This document shows, piece by piece, positions 7,829-14,368 of a stretch of DNA of 64,000 nucleotides; position 1 is the first letter of the stretch, and the number at the start of each line of letters is the position of its first letter. The stretch spans positions 64,001 to 128,000 of the forward strand of contig JBCBZJ010000005.1 in NCBI GenBank assembly GCA_039815375.1, in the 5' to 3' direction. The translations under genes were made by a program, and so were the position numbers. The notes under the pieces are model-generated. The model made no database searches, was not told where the DNA came from, and saw only the letters and a list, made by a program, of their open reading frames with translations. The DNA comes from Verrucomicrobiota bacterium (GTDB taxonomy: Bacteria; Verrucomicrobiota; Verrucomicrobiia; Opitutales; Coraliomargaritaceae).

Positions 7829-8929
7829 ATGGCAGTCCTTGAAACAATACATGGTCTTCTGACTCTTGCGGTTGAGAATGGAGCCAGTGATATTCATATC
7901 AAATCGAACAAGCCGGCCTTCCTTCGATTAAGCGGACGCCTTGAGCCTGTCGAGATGGAGCCGATATCGCCGGAGGATGTGCAGGAGTTTATTGAGCAGA
8001 GTGTTCCTGAGCAGTTTTTTGAGGAATGGCAAAATAACCGGCAGGTCGACTATTCCTATCGGGTCGAGAATATTGGCCGTTTTCGTGTAAACGGATTCCT
8101 CCAACGTGGTATTCCAAGTGTGGTGATGCGCCATGTTAATGACCATCCACCTACTTTTGAGGACTTGAATATTGACGGGGGAACGTTGACGAATCTTTGT
8201 CGGGAGAAGGACGGTATCGTCCTTCTCTGCGGTGCTACGGGTTCTGGTAAGAGTTCTACGCTTGCTGCGATGATCAATCACATCAATCGGAACTACGATA
8301 AGCATATTGTTACGCTCGAGGATCCGATTGAGTTTACCTATACAGATGCGCAATCGATCATCAATCAACGCGAGGTCGGCATCGACTGTCCGGATTTTGC
8401 ATCCGGCATGAAAGCAGTGCTCCGCCAAGATCCCGATGTTATTCTGGTCGGTGAGATGCGGGACAAGCACACGTTCGAAACCGCACTACAAGCTTCCGAA
8501 ACGGGCCACCTTGTTTTTGGCACACTCCACGCCTCAAATGCGCAGCAGGCGATCCAGCGCCTTTTTGAATTTTTCCCGGAAGAACGCCGCGTCGCGCTTC
8601 AGAGGCAGATTGCGTCCGCCCTTTGCGCCACAATTACGCAGAAGTTATTGCCTGCTCTGGAGGGGGGAGGGCGTTATCCCGTTTCGGAATCATTCATTCT
8701 CGATTCCCTCGCACGTAAGACGATTATGGAGGGTAACTTTGAGAAAATTGAGGCTGTTATCGAAGCGAATGAAGACAATGGTTCGAAGACTTTTAATCAG
8801 GATCTGTATCGCTTGGTTAAAGCTGGTTTAATTACTCGTGACGATGCTCTTAGCAATTCGCCAAACCCGCGTCAGTTGGAAATGAACCTCAAGGGGATCT
8901 TTCTCAGCAGCGGTGGCATTGTGAACTAA
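7829..8929 (+). CDS. pilT: PilT/PilU-family type IV pilus retraction ATPase
   Basis: ASDIHI, Walker A GATGSGKSST, TLEDPIEF, LRQDPDVILVGEMRD, His box TGHLVFGTLH. Confidence 0.9.
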   Translation: MAVLETIHGLLTLAVENGASDIHIKSNKPAFLRLSGRLEPVEMEPISPEDVQEFIEQSVPEQFFEEWQNNRQVDYSYRVENIGRFRVNGFLQRGIPSVVMRHVNDHPPTFEDLNIDGGTLTNLCREKDGIVLLCGATGSGKSSTLAAMINHINRNYDKHIVTLEDPIEFTYTDAQSIINQREVGIDCPDFASGMKAVLRQDPDVILVGEMRDKHTFETALQASETGHLVFGTLHASNAQQAIQRLFEFFPEERRVALQRQIASALCATITQKLLPALEGGGRYPVSESFILDSLARKTIMEGNFEKIEAVIEANEDNGSKTFNQDLYRLVKAGLITRDDALSNSPNPRQLEMNLKGIFLSSGGIVN

Positions 8930-9810
8930 GCTTCCAGCACTTGCTCCAAACGCTGGATGAGTTCGCCTCGCAGAGGCATCGCTTCATCGCTTAGAATACG
9001 TTGGCGCTCTTCGTATATCTTTCGGCCGGCTGCGGTTTCGATTTGTACAGCCTCATAGCCGAGCGAGCGGCAATCGTAGGGACTGGCCTGCATGTCGAGC
9101 TGACGGGCGCGAACTGCCAACTCAAAGCACTGCCATAGCAATTCCGATCCGATCCAAGGCATGCATTGTCCGGATAGCTTATACAGGTCCATATTGGTGT
9201 GGAGGCAGCCGCACTGCTCGTTACTGATCCGTTCTGATTTAGTTGGCTGAATGCGGTTCATTGGCTGGGCACCTCGGCTGAAGAACCTAAAGGCGTCGAA
9301 GTGGCTGCAACTGATCGGTCGGCTGCGCACAAAAGCATCGATTTCCTCTTGAGAAAGACGAAGTGGTAAATTCTCGGCATGCCGTATCTCTCCACCAGTA
9401 TCTCCACGATAGACCATGGCCCATTCATGGACCCCAAAACAACCGTATTGTGGGGGACGACTGGCAATAGAGCGAGAAAGACGGAGTGCCATTTTCAAGC
9501 GGTGCTTCGTTGCCTGTTCCATCTGGTTAATATCCAAAGAACGGATCCGACCTGTTGTGGTGTAGTATCGCGATTGATAGCTGGGTTCCTCGTCGGCGTC
9601 CTCTAGTTCGCAGTCGAAACCAGGGTGCCAGCTTTCGAGCTGCGAGGCTTTCACCCGGTAGTATATGAAAAGAAAGTCAAGGATCGGATGAAGCGATCTA
9701 TTCGCCCTCCTTTCTCTGAAAGGTTCGGTCCATTCCTGCGCTCGTTTCAAGTGGCGAGCAGTTCGTTCTTGCCAGACATTTTTCTGCAAAGTTGTGACTG
9801 CTTCTAGCAT
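8926..9810 (-). CDS. Conserved Cys/His-rich protein of uncertain function (family often auto-labelled '3-methyladenine DNA glycosylase')
   Basis: Blocks HPILDFLFIYY, GCFGVHEWAMVY, CSHFDAFRFF, EQCGCLHTNMDLYK, LDMQASPYD. Family recognised from memory; function not established. Confidence 0.7.
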   Translation of the reverse strand: MLEAVTTLQKNVWQERTARHLKRAQEWTEPFRERRANRSLHPILDFLFIYYRVKASQLESWHPGFDCELEDADEEPSYQSRYYTTTGRIRSLDINQMEQATKHRLKMALRLSRSIASRPPQYGCFGVHEWAMVYRGDTGGEIRHAENLPLRLSQEEIDAFVRSRPISCSHFDAFRFFSRGAQPMNRIQPTKSERISNEQCGCLHTNMDLYKLSGQCMPWIGSELLWQCFELAVRARQLDMQASPYDCRSLGYEAVQIETAAGRKIYEERQRILSDEAMPLRGELIQRLEQVLEA

Positions 9811-9927
9811 CTTTGATTTAACTATGAATCGTTGATTATGAGATCGAATTCTTTTGTTTGGTAAGCGCCAACGTTTCTCCTTCAGCAAGTCAGTAAGAAA
9901 ATTAGGTTGGTCTGTTATTTAAGTAAT

Positions 9928-10028
9928 ATTACGTATTAATATACGAAAAAAAGTTTATTGAGTTCAAATTAAGAAACCAGATGTGAAAACATAAGGAGGG
10001 TATTTTCTTCATTTTTCATTACGTATTA
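9928..10028. promoter_or_regulatory. Two exact copies of ATTACGTATTA (9928-9938, 10018-10028) in an AT-rich divergent promoter region
   Basis: Read directly. The copies start 90 bp apart; the ACGT core is near-palindromic. Confidence 0.5.
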
Positions 10029-10222
10029 TAAGGGTATTTTTTCAGGCCTTATACTCATTTTTCCTCTATATTTGCTACTTTGACCCTATTAGTATAGCGG
10101 TCGGTTTAAGAAAGTGTAAAAAAACCACCGCTGGTGCATTGCGTCTTTACGCATATATGGCTTGCAAGGCATAAAGTAAGGCGTGAAGGGCTAAATCGGT
10201 TCTCTCACAAAACCCCTTACAC

Positions 10223-10570
10223 ATGACAAAATATCTGACATTGCTCAGCTCGAAATCTCAAAAGGATGAAGTTGTTGAGACGGAGCTACCGAAGCTTAAT
10301 TTGTTTAAGACGGTAGAAAGGTTAGAGCGTATGCGTTTCGTTCAATCCGCTTCCGGTTTGACTCGATTGTTGAGTTTTACCCCTTTGAAGTTTAGACAAC
10401 TCTGTCTCCCCGCACTGCTTGTTTTTAGTGAACTGAAAAGTGAATCGGTTCAGCTCTCTAAAACATTAGGCGCTTCGTGCTTTAAATGGTTGCCTCTGCC
10501 ACAGCTTAAATGGAGCGCAGTCTCACCGGCCATACCGGTTCCACTAGACGGTTTCAATGGCTCCGGTTGA
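10223..10570 (+). CDS. Small hypothetical protein, first ORF of the kinase-ParA unit
   Basis: ATG start after an A/C-rich leader, 115 aa, co-oriented and 44 bp before the kinase gene. No recognisable motif. Confidence 0.5.
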   Translation: MTKYLTLLSSKSQKDEVVETELPKLNLFKTVERLERMRFVQSASGLTRLLSFTPLKFRQLCLPALLVFSELKSESVQLSKTLGASCFKWLPLPQLKWSAVSPAIPVPLDGFNGSG

Positions 10571-10614
10571 GCCCAAATAACGCATCGAGCTTCAAGTATT
10601 AACCCCAAACTTAA

Positions 10615-11562
10615 ATGGATATTTCAAAAATGAGATTTACCGACGAAGTTTCTTCGCTCCAACCTGGTATGGCCATCGGCAACCTGCACATTGTCAGTTT
10701 TATCGGCAAGGGTGCAATTGGTGAAGTTTACCTCGCGCAGCACGAGATATTAGGAAAGCAATTTGCTATTAAGGTGATTCCGAAAGGTTTTTCCGGTAGT
10801 GATGGACCGACTGCATTTAAACAAGCAGCCCGTATTCAGACTAAACTGGATCATCCCCATATACTTCGGATCGATGATCTGGGAGAGGAGGAACTGTTTT
10901 ACTGGCTTCGGATGGAATACATCGAAGGCGAAGAAACCGCTGAAAAGGCTCGTATCCGCACACTTCAAGATTTGATGCGGAACAACAAGGGCCCGCTCAG
11001 CGAGGAGGAGGTAAACTACTACCTCTATTATCTCTTGCTCGGTATCGATTACGCCCACACCCAAGGTATCATTCACCAAGATCTTAAACCGGCTAACATC
11101 ATGATCGCGGAAGAGGGAGTAAAGATTGCCGAGCTCGGTGTCACCGAACTCATCGGGCACGCTTGGGATGACTTTCATATTCAGCGCCGCGAGGTCCGTC
11201 TTGATCCGACTCCGTTTGATCCTCTACCCGGCTACAGTCGTGCGCTTCCTTCTCTATTAACTGCATTTGAATACTACAGCCCTGAGCAGCGCGCTGGTAA
11301 ACAAGCTGATTTCGTTAGTAACCTTTACAGTGTTGGGCTCATTGCCTACCGCATGTTGACGGGTCGCCACAGTCTTTCGCTTGATATGCCCACCCGTGCT
11401 GTCAACGGGATCAATCCACGCTGGGATGCGTGGATTGCCCGTGCGCTGGCTTACGACACTGAAGACCGCTTCCAGTCTGCGGCTGAAATGCTGCGGGCAA
11501 TGCCCGGGCTCGAAACCGAAACCGCCGAGAACTCCGGCGCTGTCCAGGAGGTCGCAGGTTAG
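10615..11562 (+). CDS. Soluble Hanks-type Ser/Thr kinase-fold protein, probable pseudokinase
   Basis: GKGAIGEVY, FAIK, HQDLKPAN and YSPEQ are present. DFG reads ELG, the alphaC Glu reads Ala, and the subdomain IX Asp reads Asn. No TM helix. Confidence 0.88.
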   Translation: MDISKMRFTDEVSSLQPGMAIGNLHIVSFIGKGAIGEVYLAQHEILGKQFAIKVIPKGFSGSDGPTAFKQAARIQTKLDHPHILRIDDLGEEELFYWLRMEYIEGEETAEKARIRTLQDLMRNNKGPLSEEEVNYYLYYLLLGIDYAHTQGIIHQDLKPANIMIAEEGVKIAELGVTELIGHAWDDFHIQRREVRLDPTPFDPLPGYSRALPSLLTAFEYYSPEQRAGKQADFVSNLYSVGLIAYRMLTGRHSLSLDMPTRAVNGINPRWDAWIARALAYDTEDRFQSAAEMLRAMPGLETETAENSGAVQEVAG

Positions 11563-11600
11563 TTAATTTTTAAACTCAACCCATCCAACCTAACATCGTC

Positions 11601-12326
11601 ATGTCTATCCAACGCAAATTCAAAGTCACCACTACCGTCACTCAATATATGTGGGCTTCTTCGCGGAATGATGCCGCTAAATTCCAAGAGGAACTGATTC
11701 AAAAAGGAAAACTTGATATTATGCGTGATGGCGAAACGGATGTGAAGTTCTGCTTCACGGGTGGTCGCGATTTTGTTGAAGCGCCCGAGGATATTTCCAA
11801 GACACGTGATCCGGTCGATCAACCAAGACGTGGTGATTGGCTCGAAATCGCTCATGGTGATGTCAAAGCATTTGCACTTGTTCGTCGGCTTAGCAGGCGC
11901 AAGGTTTATTATTATGAAGCACTTTCCCGCACCGAACGTTCGGTTGATCGCGAGCGTTGGCAACGTTGGGCGACGCAACACTCGATCCATCCCTGCTACG
12001 ATGGAATCGTGCCTCCGTTCATTGTGGACGAAGTCATTCAGGCTCACGAAGAGCGTGGTATGCTCAGCGGATTCAATGCCACACCGGACTCTTCGCTGAT
12101 TCTCGAAATCCTCGATAAATATGGCTATGTGCCGGACGACTATGAGGTTGAGAACGGCTACTGGGCTGAGATTTACATCGACCGTGCGCTTTCCGACAAA
12201 ATTTTAGCTAGCCAGCAAGAGCCATCGATGAAGACTGGGACTGGTGGTGACGATGAGTTTGGTGATTTCTCTGTAGGGTTCTCCGAAGAGTTGCCTACTA
12301 TCGATGATTTTGAATCTAAATTCTAG
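11601..12326 (+). CDS. Hypothetical protein with acidic C-terminal tail
   Basis: 241-aa ORF with operon-like spacing, ending GGDDEFGDFSVGFSEELPTIDDFESKF. Confidence 0.8.
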   Translation: MSIQRKFKVTTTVTQYMWASSRNDAAKFQEELIQKGKLDIMRDGETDVKFCFTGGRDFVEAPEDISKTRDPVDQPRRGDWLEIAHGDVKAFALVRRLSRRKVYYYEALSRTERSVDRERWQRWATQHSIHPCYDGIVPPFIVDEVIQAHEERGMLSGFNATPDSSLILEILDKYGYVPDDYEVENGYWAEIYIDRALSDKILASQQEPSMKTGTGGDDEFGDFSVGFSEELPTIDDFESKF

Positions 12327-12375
12327 CGCTGAGACTAGCGCATACGCACATTTTCAATACTTTAAGGGATAGCCC

Positions 12376-13305
12376 ATGGCACGCAAACTAGCATTTATCA
12401 ATTACAAGGGTGGAGTCGGTAAGACTTCTCTCATTGTCAACATCGCTTCCTGCCTCGCGAAAAGCGGTAAACGTGTCCTTCTGTGTGACCTTGATACTCA
12501 GTCGAATTCCAGTATCTGGTTGATGCGTATTGAGCGCTGGAACCGTATTAATATGGAAAAGCGTGGCTCGGTTTACTCTATTTTTGATCCAGGCGAAGAT
12601 AGAATCAGCGATATTATCGTTAAGGACGTGCTTCAAGACAACCAAGGCAAAGCACTGTTACCGGGTCTGGATCTCCTGCCCACGACCTTTAACCTTATCG
12701 ACATAGAGAATGAGTATAAAATCAACCCGCAGAATCCTCATTACCTGATTTACAATGAGCAGATTCGTGAGGTCGAAAAAGACTACGACTTCATCCTCTA
12801 CGACTGCCCGCCCAATGTTCTCAACGCTTCTCAATGTGGCATATTCAGTGCCGACGAGCTCTACGTTCCAGCCAATCCCGATGCGCTCTCTCTCATTGGT
12901 TTTACTCTGATGATCGAGAAGCTTCTTCTATTCTACCGTCGTTCTGCCGGATTCCGTGTGCCTGAAATGGGCAACTTCGCTCGTGTTTCTGGAGTGATTT
13001 TCAACTCAATTAAAGCCAATGTCGACATAGGTGTGCCTAAGATGCGTATGCAGCTTCGTCTCAACCAGTTCAAGAAGCAGCGCTTGGTATCAAACGAAGC
13101 GAAGATTTACGATGCCTGTGTGCGCGACGCAACTATTGTTCGTCGGGCTGTGACACTTGGTTTGCCAGTCTGTCTGGTTGAAAGTCGTGATGTTATCGAT
13201 GGTGTTGGTAAGGATTACAACGATCTGGCAGAGGAGATACTGGCCCACGATGTCAATTCGCCTGCGGCCTCCCAAACGACGAACCCGATGGCTAGTGCAT
13301 CCTAA
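12376..13305 (+). CDS. ParA/Soj-family ATPase (orphan; no parB in window)
   Basis: Deviant Walker A KGGVGKTS, DLDTQSNSS, Walker B FILYDCPP. Confidence 0.93.
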   Translation: MARKLAFINYKGGVGKTSLIVNIASCLAKSGKRVLLCDLDTQSNSSIWLMRIERWNRINMEKRGSVYSIFDPGEDRISDIIVKDVLQDNQGKALLPGLDLLPTTFNLIDIENEYKINPQNPHYLIYNEQIREVEKDYDFILYDCPPNVLNASQCGIFSADELYVPANPDALSLIGFTLMIEKLLLFYRRSAGFRVPEMGNFARVSGVIFNSIKANVDIGVPKMRMQLRLNQFKKQRLVSNEAKIYDACVRDATIVRRAVTLGLPVCLVESRDVIDGVGKDYNDLAEEILAHDVNSPAASQTTNPMASAS

Positions 13306-13311
13306 TCTGAT

Positions 13312-14355
13312 ATGAGTAAATTTCTCCAAAAACAATCCATTCAGGAACCAAGTCAGGAACAAATTGAGGCCCTCGCTGCGCGTTGGGACAAAGTAGCCTA
13401 TCGCGCCCAAGGTTCTCCTTTTGAAGACCTCAGCATCGCTTGTCTGGCCAAGAATACAGGCACACGTGTCTGGCATAGGCCTGGTGCCAAGGTAAAGAAC
13501 GATACTATCGGGCGCTACATCTACTTCAGCTTTGAGGAACTTCTCGAGGTCGAGAAGCTCGACTTTAAAATCGCCGCACACTTAGTTGAAGTTTGCGAAG
13601 CAACTTTCCTTTTTGAAGAAGAGTGCGATGAAATCGGCACTTTTGATGAGATCGACATGCAGGCCTATAAGCAACGCATGCGTTTCGTGGAAGAGTTTGG
13701 GCTGAACCATGACTTCCCGGTGGCTCTCGCAAATCTCGAGCCCGAGCTGCGTGAACTCTGCACAGTTGAAGAGGTCGTTACCTTTATTGATTTAATGAGT
13801 TTCCTAGATCGGCTGACTGACGTCGCTTGGATCGGTGGAACGTATCGAAGCCTCCAAAACGCCTTTGCTCATGGCGATGAGAAGGGCCTAACAAGATACT
13901 TCCCCTATCGATTGGGCCATCGTGGCTTCCATTTACCGGAAGCACTTTCCTTTATTTTGAGCCGCCTAGCTCAGAAGGATTTGAACGAGGTGTTCGAGTA
14001 TCATGAACGCCGTCGCCGCCGGCATAGACTCGGTGGTAAGCGCATGGAAATGCCTGCTTGTGTTGAGAGCAGTCTACTGCCTGAGATTTTCAAATGCATG
14101 CACTATTTCGGTAGTCGACAGCCACGTCTGCTTGTTCGTTTGCATGATTCCGCTTACCTTTGCCGGGAGCTCATGTTTCTGAATGATCCTCAGACTGAGG
14201 GTGTATTGCATTGGTTAATACACCTTTCTCTTGGAGTCTTCCGTCCGAACCAATTCAAAGACCTTTCCGAAGAAATCAAGGCTGTGGGGAGCGCTCGGAA
14301 TGATGAACTCGTTCAAGAGCTTCGCCGTATGTTGTCGGACGAAGCTACAGCTTAA
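13312..14355 (+). CDS. Hypothetical protein with alpha-CTD/HhH-like segments
   Basis: 347-aa ORF 6 bp after parA. Two segments resemble the RNA polymerase alpha C-terminal domain by eye. Confidence 0.75.
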   Translation: MSKFLQKQSIQEPSQEQIEALAARWDKVAYRAQGSPFEDLSIACLAKNTGTRVWHRPGAKVKNDTIGRYIYFSFEELLEVEKLDFKIAAHLVEVCEATFLFEEECDEIGTFDEIDMQAYKQRMRFVEEFGLNHDFPVALANLEPELRELCTVEEVVTFIDLMSFLDRLTDVAWIGGTYRSLQNAFAHGDEKGLTRYFPYRLGHRGFHLPEALSFILSRLAQKDLNEVFEYHERRRRRHRLGGKRMEMPACVESSLLPEIFKCMHYFGSRQPRLLVRLHDSAYLCRELMFLNDPQTEGVLHWLIHLSLGVFRPNQFKDLSEEIKAVGSARNDELVQELRRMLSDEATA

Positions 14356-14368
14356 GCTGTAGCTTTTT
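14342..14368 (+). terminator. Perfect 24-bp palindrome plus T-run at a convergent gene junction
   Basis: AAGCTACAGCTTAAGCTGTAGCTT (14342-14365), followed by TTT on the + strand. Confidence 0.6.

Follow-up and report, generated by a model that had tools for sequence, protein, structure and literature searches.

Organization of the locus

The window analyzed here, i.e. the whole stretch of 64,000 nucleotides at positions 64,001 to 128,000 of contig JBCBZJ010000005.1 (assembly GCA_039815375.1; Verrucomicrobiota, Opitutales, Coraliomargaritaceae), contains at positions 10223 to 14355 five open reading frames (ORFs), which a preliminary description made from the sequence alone had grouped into a candidate system around an orphan ParA ATPase. 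As described, all five lie on the plus strand and are separated by gaps of 44, 38, 49 and 6 bp: ORF1 (10223-10570, 115 amino acids (aa)), known from the ORF list; ORF2 (10615-11562, 315 aa), with a kinase fold (Pkinase, E 1e-32); ORF3 (11601-12326, 241 aa), an acidic-tail protein from a family without prior description; ORF4 (12376-13305, 309 aa), a ParA-family ATPase (AAA_31, E 8e-35); and ORF5 (13312-14355, 347 aa), an all-helical putative ParA partner judging from its structural model and profile relatives. Pfam recognizes the kinase and ParA alone among these proteins, and the hydropathy of 19-residue segments does not exceed 1.42 in any of the five, in line with the reported lack of obvious transmembrane helices. 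Comparison with related genomes shows that ORF2-ORF5 are a conserved operon of marine Verrucomicrobia, the ParA-ORF5 core of which is found in Opitutales only.

The AT-rich control region and the terminal hairpin reported before were both confirmed. The spacer 5' of ORF1 (9811-10222, 412 bp) has a GC content of 34.7% versus 50.9% in the window and contains, at 10105..10150 on the plus strand, a bipartite element: an A/T-rich box ending in GTAAAA, a spacer of about 24 bp and CTTTAC. Of 17 aligned loci, 13 have this element 5' of the first gene of the cluster (gene 1), and these include both ORF1 of the window and an unlinked 7TM copy of gene 1 elsewhere in this genome (contig C56); a looser version occurs seven times genome-wide. 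The element is likely to be the promoter or operator of the operon. A promoter scan found no plus-strand sigma-70 sites 5' of ORF1 and no excess over shuffled sequences. At the other end, a perfect 24-bp palindrome (14342-14365, fold z -5.1) spans the convergent stop codons of ORF5 and an RND gene, being formed by the overlapping ends of the two. It is a possible bidirectional terminator; the RND neighbor is common to just two of 20 family loci. DNA contigs of the possible source sequencing run match the window, and indels are listed in none of the runs.

Conservation and distribution

Of the 21 close ORF5 matches in other genomes, we fetched the surroundings of 20. Seventeen of these loci have the order kinase-ORF3-ParA-ORF5; of the other three, one is cut off within ORF3 by the end of its contig, and two have ParA-ORF5 alone. 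A kinase scan of GTDB gave 30 loci, or 28 with two distant kinases left out: all four genes are present in 25 of the 28, and the other three run off the contig end. The two sets overlap and are not independent. Co-location across relatives, proposed earlier as a check of the grouping, thus holds for four genes, ORF1 excepted; the full five-gene order is seen in two genomes of Thalassobacterium, which like Coraliomargarita is a harmless genus available in culture.

The loci are flanked by varying housekeeping genes without mobile elements, which agrees with the absence of transposase and integrase genes noted in the window; together with a coding GC content near that of the genome and the restriction to one order, this supports the view of a native, lineage-specific cluster. 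In the window, the divergent upstream gene (8926-9810, minus strand) belongs to no Pfam or NCBIfam family and is unlinked in relatives; it adjoins a PilT-like ATPase gene (7829-8929, plus strand). Two contigs titled Yoonia and Polaribacter (L149 and L154) carry the cluster at 70-84% identity, mis-binning being more likely than transfer.

Anti-phage defense by a kinase plus an NTPase, which the preliminary description had ranked as less likely, was checked with PADLOC 2.0, and no system-specific gene set was found. The kinase does score on PADLOC kinase models (PD-T4-6, mad6), and distant relatives bearing the alpha C-terminal domain (alpha-CTD)/sigma-4 regions of ORF5 ancestry form part of very large proteins or are joined to a DUF4357 domain matching PADLOC models, but the matches reflect a generic kinase fold and a weak Walker A, and there are none for ORF3 and ORF5. 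Given also the absence of flanking mobile genes, the unremarkable coding GC content, the 78-92% identity of ParA across the family, the confinement of ORF5 to a single order and the absence of ORF5 matches from 50,697 phage records, we consider defense very improbable.

In a panel of 61 Opitutales genomes, where related genomes are not independent and absence tracks small genome size (median about 2.0 Mb without the system vs 3.1 Mb with it), the ParA clade and intact ORF5 have matches in an identical set of 29 genomes; the two genes are adjacent in all 65 distinct pairs from the fetched loci. Within the 29 positive genomes, ORF3 is present in 23, the kinase in 21, a seven-transmembrane (7TM) gene 1 in 20 and a Pro-rich coiled-coil protein in 25, while none of these four was found in the 32 ParA-negative genomes, even with unlinked copies counted. 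The ORF5 family was detected in 43 of 301 Verrucomicrobiota genomes, all of the same order as the window; one of these detections is a stop-ridden fragment. In G016, a 2.3-Mb genome, nothing but a stop-ridden ORF5 fragment (L030:1501-1713) is left, a sign of recent system loss.

A second, older locus is distributed across Opitutales and consists of a paralogous ParA (about 60% identical; clade B, the window belonging to clade A), a tailed ORF5 and usually the Pro-rich coiled-coil gene. In this genome (G000) the latter is unlinked (G000:C37:118660-119241). Locus L160 is intermediate, combining the five-gene order with the ORF5 tail. Several irregular copies were observed: a clade-B ParA pseudogene with a deleted Walker A region and frameshifts before an intact ORF5 paralogue (L051:7688-9057, G000:C63); clade-B ORF5 without an adjoining ParA (L065, L067, L068, L070 and L069); and third, fast-evolving ParA-clade copies without an ORF5 neighbor in G018 (L097:7543-8496) and G017 (L098:6558-7472).

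The ATPase and its adjacent partner

In ORF4, K11, the KGGVGKT motif (G12-T17), D38, D40 and DCPP (D143-P146) are invariant in 57 rows, and the protein matches CbiA above cut-off besides AAA_31. Its top sequence matches in the PDB are Soj/ParA structures (E 4e-12 to 2e-11). Identity is 78-92% within clade A, about 60% to clade B and 22-24% to Soj. In a quick tree, for which two Soj rows served as the outgroup and MinD, McdA, ParC and PomZ references were not included, the protein branches apart from Soj with a long branch. By sequence, ORF4 is a deviant Walker A ParA/MinD ATPase of an Opitutales-specific clade.

Its description as an orphan ParA had left a grouping with chromosomal Soj to be checked. 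The two are separate on the tree, and this genome encodes Soj (contig C62) and ParB (G000:C37:261215-261748, a different contig from Soj) elsewhere, which accords with the earlier failure to see parB near the cluster. The lack of parS was also upheld: the parS consensus has no match in the window at three mismatches, where 1.4 would be expected by chance. Hence the ATPase fold and motifs are shared with ParABS (Soj/Spo0J), whereas the low identity to the genome's own Soj, the lack of adjacent parB and parS and the existence of separate Soj and ParB distinguish the two. In one locus the chromosomal Soj adjoins a gene that reads from its sequence as tyrosine-recombinase-like (L073:10074-11835). 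A plasmid search with ParA listed 25 matches, all below 30% identity, and all 5000 matches counted were below 60%.

According to the accessible text of PMC10241942, ParA-like ATPases act on the nucleoid through basic C-terminal residues and MinD-like ones have a membrane-targeting sequence, each working with a partner. In ORF4 the basic residues K213, R224, R228, R250, R256 and R257 are near-invariant, residues 205-265 have a net charge of +7, and the variable C-terminal tail is without a membrane helix. By its predicted basic C-terminal surface and the absent membrane helix, this ATPase appears to be of the nucleoid type.

ORF5 itself matches nothing in Pfam; its profile gave nothing significant in a PDB sequence search, and the ESM Atlas yielded no usable match. 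The structural model (pLDDT 91) is predicted to be all-helical, and a fold search with the whole model gave Foldseek E values above 0.3 and a best Z of 5.5, alpha-CTD not being among the listed matches. Since whole models and not single domains were searched, the absence of fold matches for ORF5, and likewise for ORF3 (see below), does not show new folds. With the ORF5 profile, 259 representatives were retrieved at E <=0.001, and RNA_pol_A_CTD/Sigma70_r4 proteins are reached at E 1e-15 to 1e-30. Among 26 long or distant representatives that were scanned, ten had Sigma70_r4 and six RNA_pol_A_CTD at E <=0.05, several of these matches lying below the curated cut-off. The alpha-CTD/sigma-4 regions map to ORF5 residues 140-181 and 216-253. 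A direct hhalign comparison with the RpoA CTD of the same genome is weak (probability 0.5-3%), so the alpha-CTD-like character assigned to ORF5 earlier was recovered as an ancestry through intermediate relatives: by its profile relationships, ORF5 derives from alpha-CTD-like/sigma70-region-4 proteins. The helix-hairpin-helix (HhH) segment is nine columns shorter and the recognition helix is replaced, i.e. the DNA-contact motifs are not intact. Elsewhere, an alpha-CTD/sigma-4 module is found at the N-terminus of 1600-aa proteins and behind DUF4357 (P0258, P0274, P0268).

The two clades of ORF5 differ in their basic segments. Clade A has a polybasic loop at residues 231-246 (loop net charge of at least +3 in 21 of 22 clade-A rows vs one of 31 clade-B rows), and clade B has a basic aromatic C-terminal helix (38 of 39 rows vs none of 32 in clade A). 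This clade-B tail is a basic, Phe-rich amphipathic helix which we take to resemble the MinD type. A complex prediction for ParA and ORF5 scored 0.30 against a mark of 0.32, controls not being folded, and counts neither way. ORF5, the putative dedicated partner, is encoded next to ParA; the coiled-coil protein is encoded elsewhere and tracks the system.

Pseudokinase, acidic-tail protein and gene 1

Pseudokinases are defined by the loss of the beta3 Lys, HRD-Asp or DFG-Asp (accessible text of PMC12599244). The Hanks-type kinase fold of ORF2 fits this definition by sequence, as had been supposed: in an alignment of 17 rows, the DFG-Asp is Glu in all 17 (ELG or EFG). The alphaC Glu is Ala or Ser in all 17, the beta3 Lys is kept in 17 and the catalytic-loop Asp in 16 rows. 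Because the Gly-rich loop, this Lys, the catalytic Asp and the Asn are retained, ATP binding or residual kinase activity is possible. The divergent L160 kinase retains the DFG Asp and has Asn at the catalytic (HRD) Asp. Two different lesions, combined with a near-invariant activation segment, suggest that selection acts on a binding surface of the kinase and not on catalysis. The kinase is without a transmembrane or sensor domain.

ORF3, described previously as an orphan protein with an acidic tail, indeed has such a tail, which carries a net charge of -8, is disordered and is conserved at its end. It has no matches in Pfam, NCBIfam or PADLOC, and the ESM Atlas returned just unnamed clusters below 0.9. 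We found 147 homologues, among which those with a named source are all from Opitutales or Verrucomicrobiota, including one in a Coraliomargarita akajimensis record; no longer fused form was found, which is a weak negative. The model (pLDDT 81) predicts an SH3/Tudor-like barrel (approximately residues 69-133), a helical domain and the disordered tail; a whole-model fold search gave Foldseek E values above 0.04 and best matches at Z 4.4-6.1, a common barrel.

In relatives, the ORF1 slot is occupied by gene 1, a membrane protein ending in a basic tail of the KPK type in all 27 GTDB loci that show it, in both its 7TM and its single-pass versions. Most gene-1 proteins are seven-helix and opsin-like, without the retinal lysine; three loci (L035, L150, L159) have a single-pass protein with the same tail. 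In L035:4295-5751 gene 1 is split into a tail-less 7TM protein (223 aa) and a single-pass protein (180 aa) bearing both conserved tails. Comparison of gene 1 of relatives with the true rhodopsin of this genome by hhalign gave a probability of 93% (E 3.5e-7, 202 columns, helices A-G). One 7TM member matches Bac_rhodopsin (E 0.018) and six others scanned do not, and a PDB sequence search with the 7TM profile reached rhodopsins at E 6-8 only. The Schiff-base lysine in helix G is absent from all aligned members. By these alignments, gene 1 of relatives, including the intact 7TM copy at G000:C56, is a type 1 opsin fold without the lysine of retinal-binding rhodopsins. The rhodopsin locus itself (L078:8746-16304, G000:C10) encodes a protein with a DTK motif and the retinal lysine, the nearest solved structure of which is 4hyj (E 5e-52); carotenoid and blh genes follow it, and before it lie a coiled-coil gene and two small genes of roadblock-like type, of which one has a weak Robl_LC7 match (E 0.14).

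Lysine-less opsin-related proteins have been reported from haloarchaea and fungi by Becker et al. 2016 (PMC4915679), where the accessible main text has no mention of Verrucomicrobia or Opitutae. Gene 1 resembles them in aligning over helices A-G without the helix-G lysine, and differs by its long tails, its links to a pseudokinase and ParA, and its replacement by a single-pass protein in three loci. Outside the host family, ORF3 and the 7TM protein coincide in two genomes, where they are unlinked, which suggests that the two act together; a contact between the basic tail of gene 1 and the acidic tail of ORF3 would be a guess.

ORF1 could not be sustained as a fifth gene and partner. It has no tblastn match in 40 related loci or in 28 GTDB loci; a search of 5.8 billion proteins retrieved the self-match alone among proteins of 63-202 aa; and its per-codon coding score is 0.005 vs 0.18-0.25 for the other four ORFs. 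The coding score alone is not decisive, since the disordered N-terminal tail of genuine gene 1 is likewise low. ORF1 starts at the same spacing behind the upstream element as gene 1 of relatives, and the first codons align in register. A sequence-recognizable remnant of gene 1 was looked for and rejected: ORF1 ranks 800 of 4354 with the profile, the C-terminal motif is present in no frame, and protein alignments with gene 1 are no better than those of shuffled sequences, which leaves position as the sole link. Where relatives have the membrane-protein gene, ORF1 is probably a filler, either decayed or non-coding. Because it has no homologue and a non-coding score, and an intact 7TM copy lies elsewhere behind the same upstream element, it is best read, from its position, as the remainder left after gene 1 moved.

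Possible function of the system

We infer a spatial-positioning function from sequence. On balance we favor the reading that ParA and ORF5 are a positioning machine for an assembly predicted to be attached to the membrane, a landmark of the division site or pole being the most likely candidate. ATP-bound ParA dimers would coat the nucleoid via the basic C-terminal face and move or hold the assembly, and ORF5 would be the adaptor that reaches the membrane: in clade B by means of its amphipathic tail, in clade A by means of either the polybasic loop or the gene-1 membrane protein. The unlinked Pro-rich coiled-coil protein may serve as a PomX-like scaffold and ATPase activator. The pseudokinase, ORF3 and gene 1, the last being an opsin-like 7TM or a single-pass protein with a basic cytoplasmic tail, may be a later add-on, which would anchor or gate the core by binding, not by phosphorylation. 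A purely cytoplasmic module, as the preliminary description implied, is not supported, given the membrane-protein nature of gene 1 in relatives, the membrane-targeting tail of clade-B ORF5 and the coiled-coil protein encoded elsewhere.

The main rival reading is a transcription switch, where ORF5 would act on RNA polymerase or promoters, the ParA-like ATPase would be its ATP-dependent anti-activator, as FleN is for FleQ, and the membrane tail or the 7TM-pseudokinase unit would sequester it on a signal. RNA_pol_A_CTD and Sigma70_r4 in ORF5 relatives point in this direction, as do the Arg-rich patch of clade A at the former sigma-4 helix-turn-helix and the weak resemblance of the ORF3 barrel to CarD and the UvrD C-terminal domain, both RNA polymerase-binding (Z 4.5-4.8, among many others); in addition, haloarchaeal lysine-less opsins adjoin signal transducers (accessible text of PMC4915679). 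However, neither ORF5 clade retains an uneroded HhH segment or sigma-4 recognition helix, both alpha-CTD-like regions are acidic, the direct match to the RpoA CTD is weak, and the switch leaves the tightly co-occurring coiled-coil protein unexplained. We therefore regard it as unlikely.

The cargo is the least certain step of the positioning proposal. FtsZ is present in five of five genomes, and MinC and MinE were found in none of the five genomes tested for each, controls being positive. Other candidates were considered and rejected: type IV pili, because PilM is above cut-off in 48 of 61 genomes, including most negative ones; an anticorrelation with MreB, which is present in 78 of 80; and chemotaxis arrays, because CheW was not found in two of five positive genomes. 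Since pili and MreB are near-universal, CheW and bacterial microcompartment (BMC) genes have gaps, and FtsZ occurs without MinC and MinE, a landmark at the division site or pole is the leading guess, and a tentative one. Another membrane complex or chromosome anchoring seems doubtful as cargo.

Spacing of sugar-degrading Opitutales microcompartments in the manner of McdAB, with these as the cargo, is improbable in our view. BMC shell genes are present in 23 of 29 positive vs six of 32 negative genomes, and in G008 the kinase and ORF3 lie directly 3' of a BMC gene cluster (L095:1-8301, G008:C50), but the ParA-ORF5 pair of G008 lies on a different contig, next to the RND genes that also adjoin it in the window, and ParA-ORF5 is never beside a BMC cluster in loci with genes listed. 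Moreover, six of 29 positive genomes are without shell genes, five of them being 97-99% complete; BMC genes and the system are both commoner in larger genomes; and a membrane tail would be unexpected on a shell adaptor. Compared with McdAB, the system shares an orphan ParA with an adjacent unrelated partner and a partial co-occurrence with BMC genes; it differs by ParA-ORF5 being unlinked to shell genes, by its occurrence in near-complete genomes without these, and by a partner that is a folded helical protein of 320-350 aa.

Several observations speak against the positioning of a landmark at the division site or pole. Neither locus has a conserved cargo gene next to it, and in 32 of 61 Opitutales genomes, 15 of the 37 from the host family among them, no system was found, which weakens the guess. 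The system-negative genome G034 has FtsZ and no MinC, so that the system is not essential for division. ORF5 is without the basic N-terminus typical of activators (residues 1-110, net -6), and the strict basic N-terminal motif is present in seven of 25 rows of the coiled-coil protein (control 3%), several of which begin at internal ATGs.

Of the known systems, PomXYZ of Myxococcus xanthus has the most similar architecture, the likeness being architectural only: an orphan ParA of the nucleoid type has several partners dedicated to it, and the cells possess FtsZ, with MinC and MinE not having been found in them. One of these partners is Pro-rich and then coiled-coil like PomX, which has a basic peptide, an Ala/Pro-rich region and a coiled coil (accessible text of PMC7993993). 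In contrast to PomXYZ, the main partner here derives from alpha-CTD/sigma-4 proteins and carries either a membrane tail or a polybasic loop; additional components are a pseudokinase, a barrel protein and an opsin-like membrane protein; and about half of the genomes searched in the order do not have the system. With MinCDE/FlhG the clade-B system shares a C-terminal helix that resembles the MinD type, but this helix is on ORF5 and not on the ATPase; MinC and MinE themselves were each not found in the five genomes. The system would work like known orphan-ParA systems, yet on the features tested it belongs to none of ParABS, MinCDE and McdAB.

In its widest form, the proposal would be an order-wide division-site or polarity system of Opitutales, in which a nucleoid-binding ParA is combined with an RNA-polymerase-domain-derived partner carrying MinD's membrane helix, the two known matrices of ParA/MinD proteins thus being divided over two proteins, with one branch being placed under a retinal-free opsin-derived protein that signals via a pseudokinase; we advance this version as speculative, with low expectation that all of it is right. 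No description of the cluster was found in the literature searched, the coverage of which leaves most subscription papers outside, and our searches found no paper describing septum placement or cell organization in Opitutales. A survey of the phylum's rhodopsins, in its accessible text, filtered out lysine-less sequences (PMC10284914). With the module, ParA/MinD systems would gain a new class of partner, and alpha-CTD/sigma-4 domains an example of reuse outside transcription. It would also contribute a bacterial lysine-less opsin family and a family of pseudokinases from a phylum that the accessible text of a recent review (PMC12599244) does not mention. For Opitutales, which are widespread marine and freshwater bacteria with FtsZ, it offers named, testable candidates.

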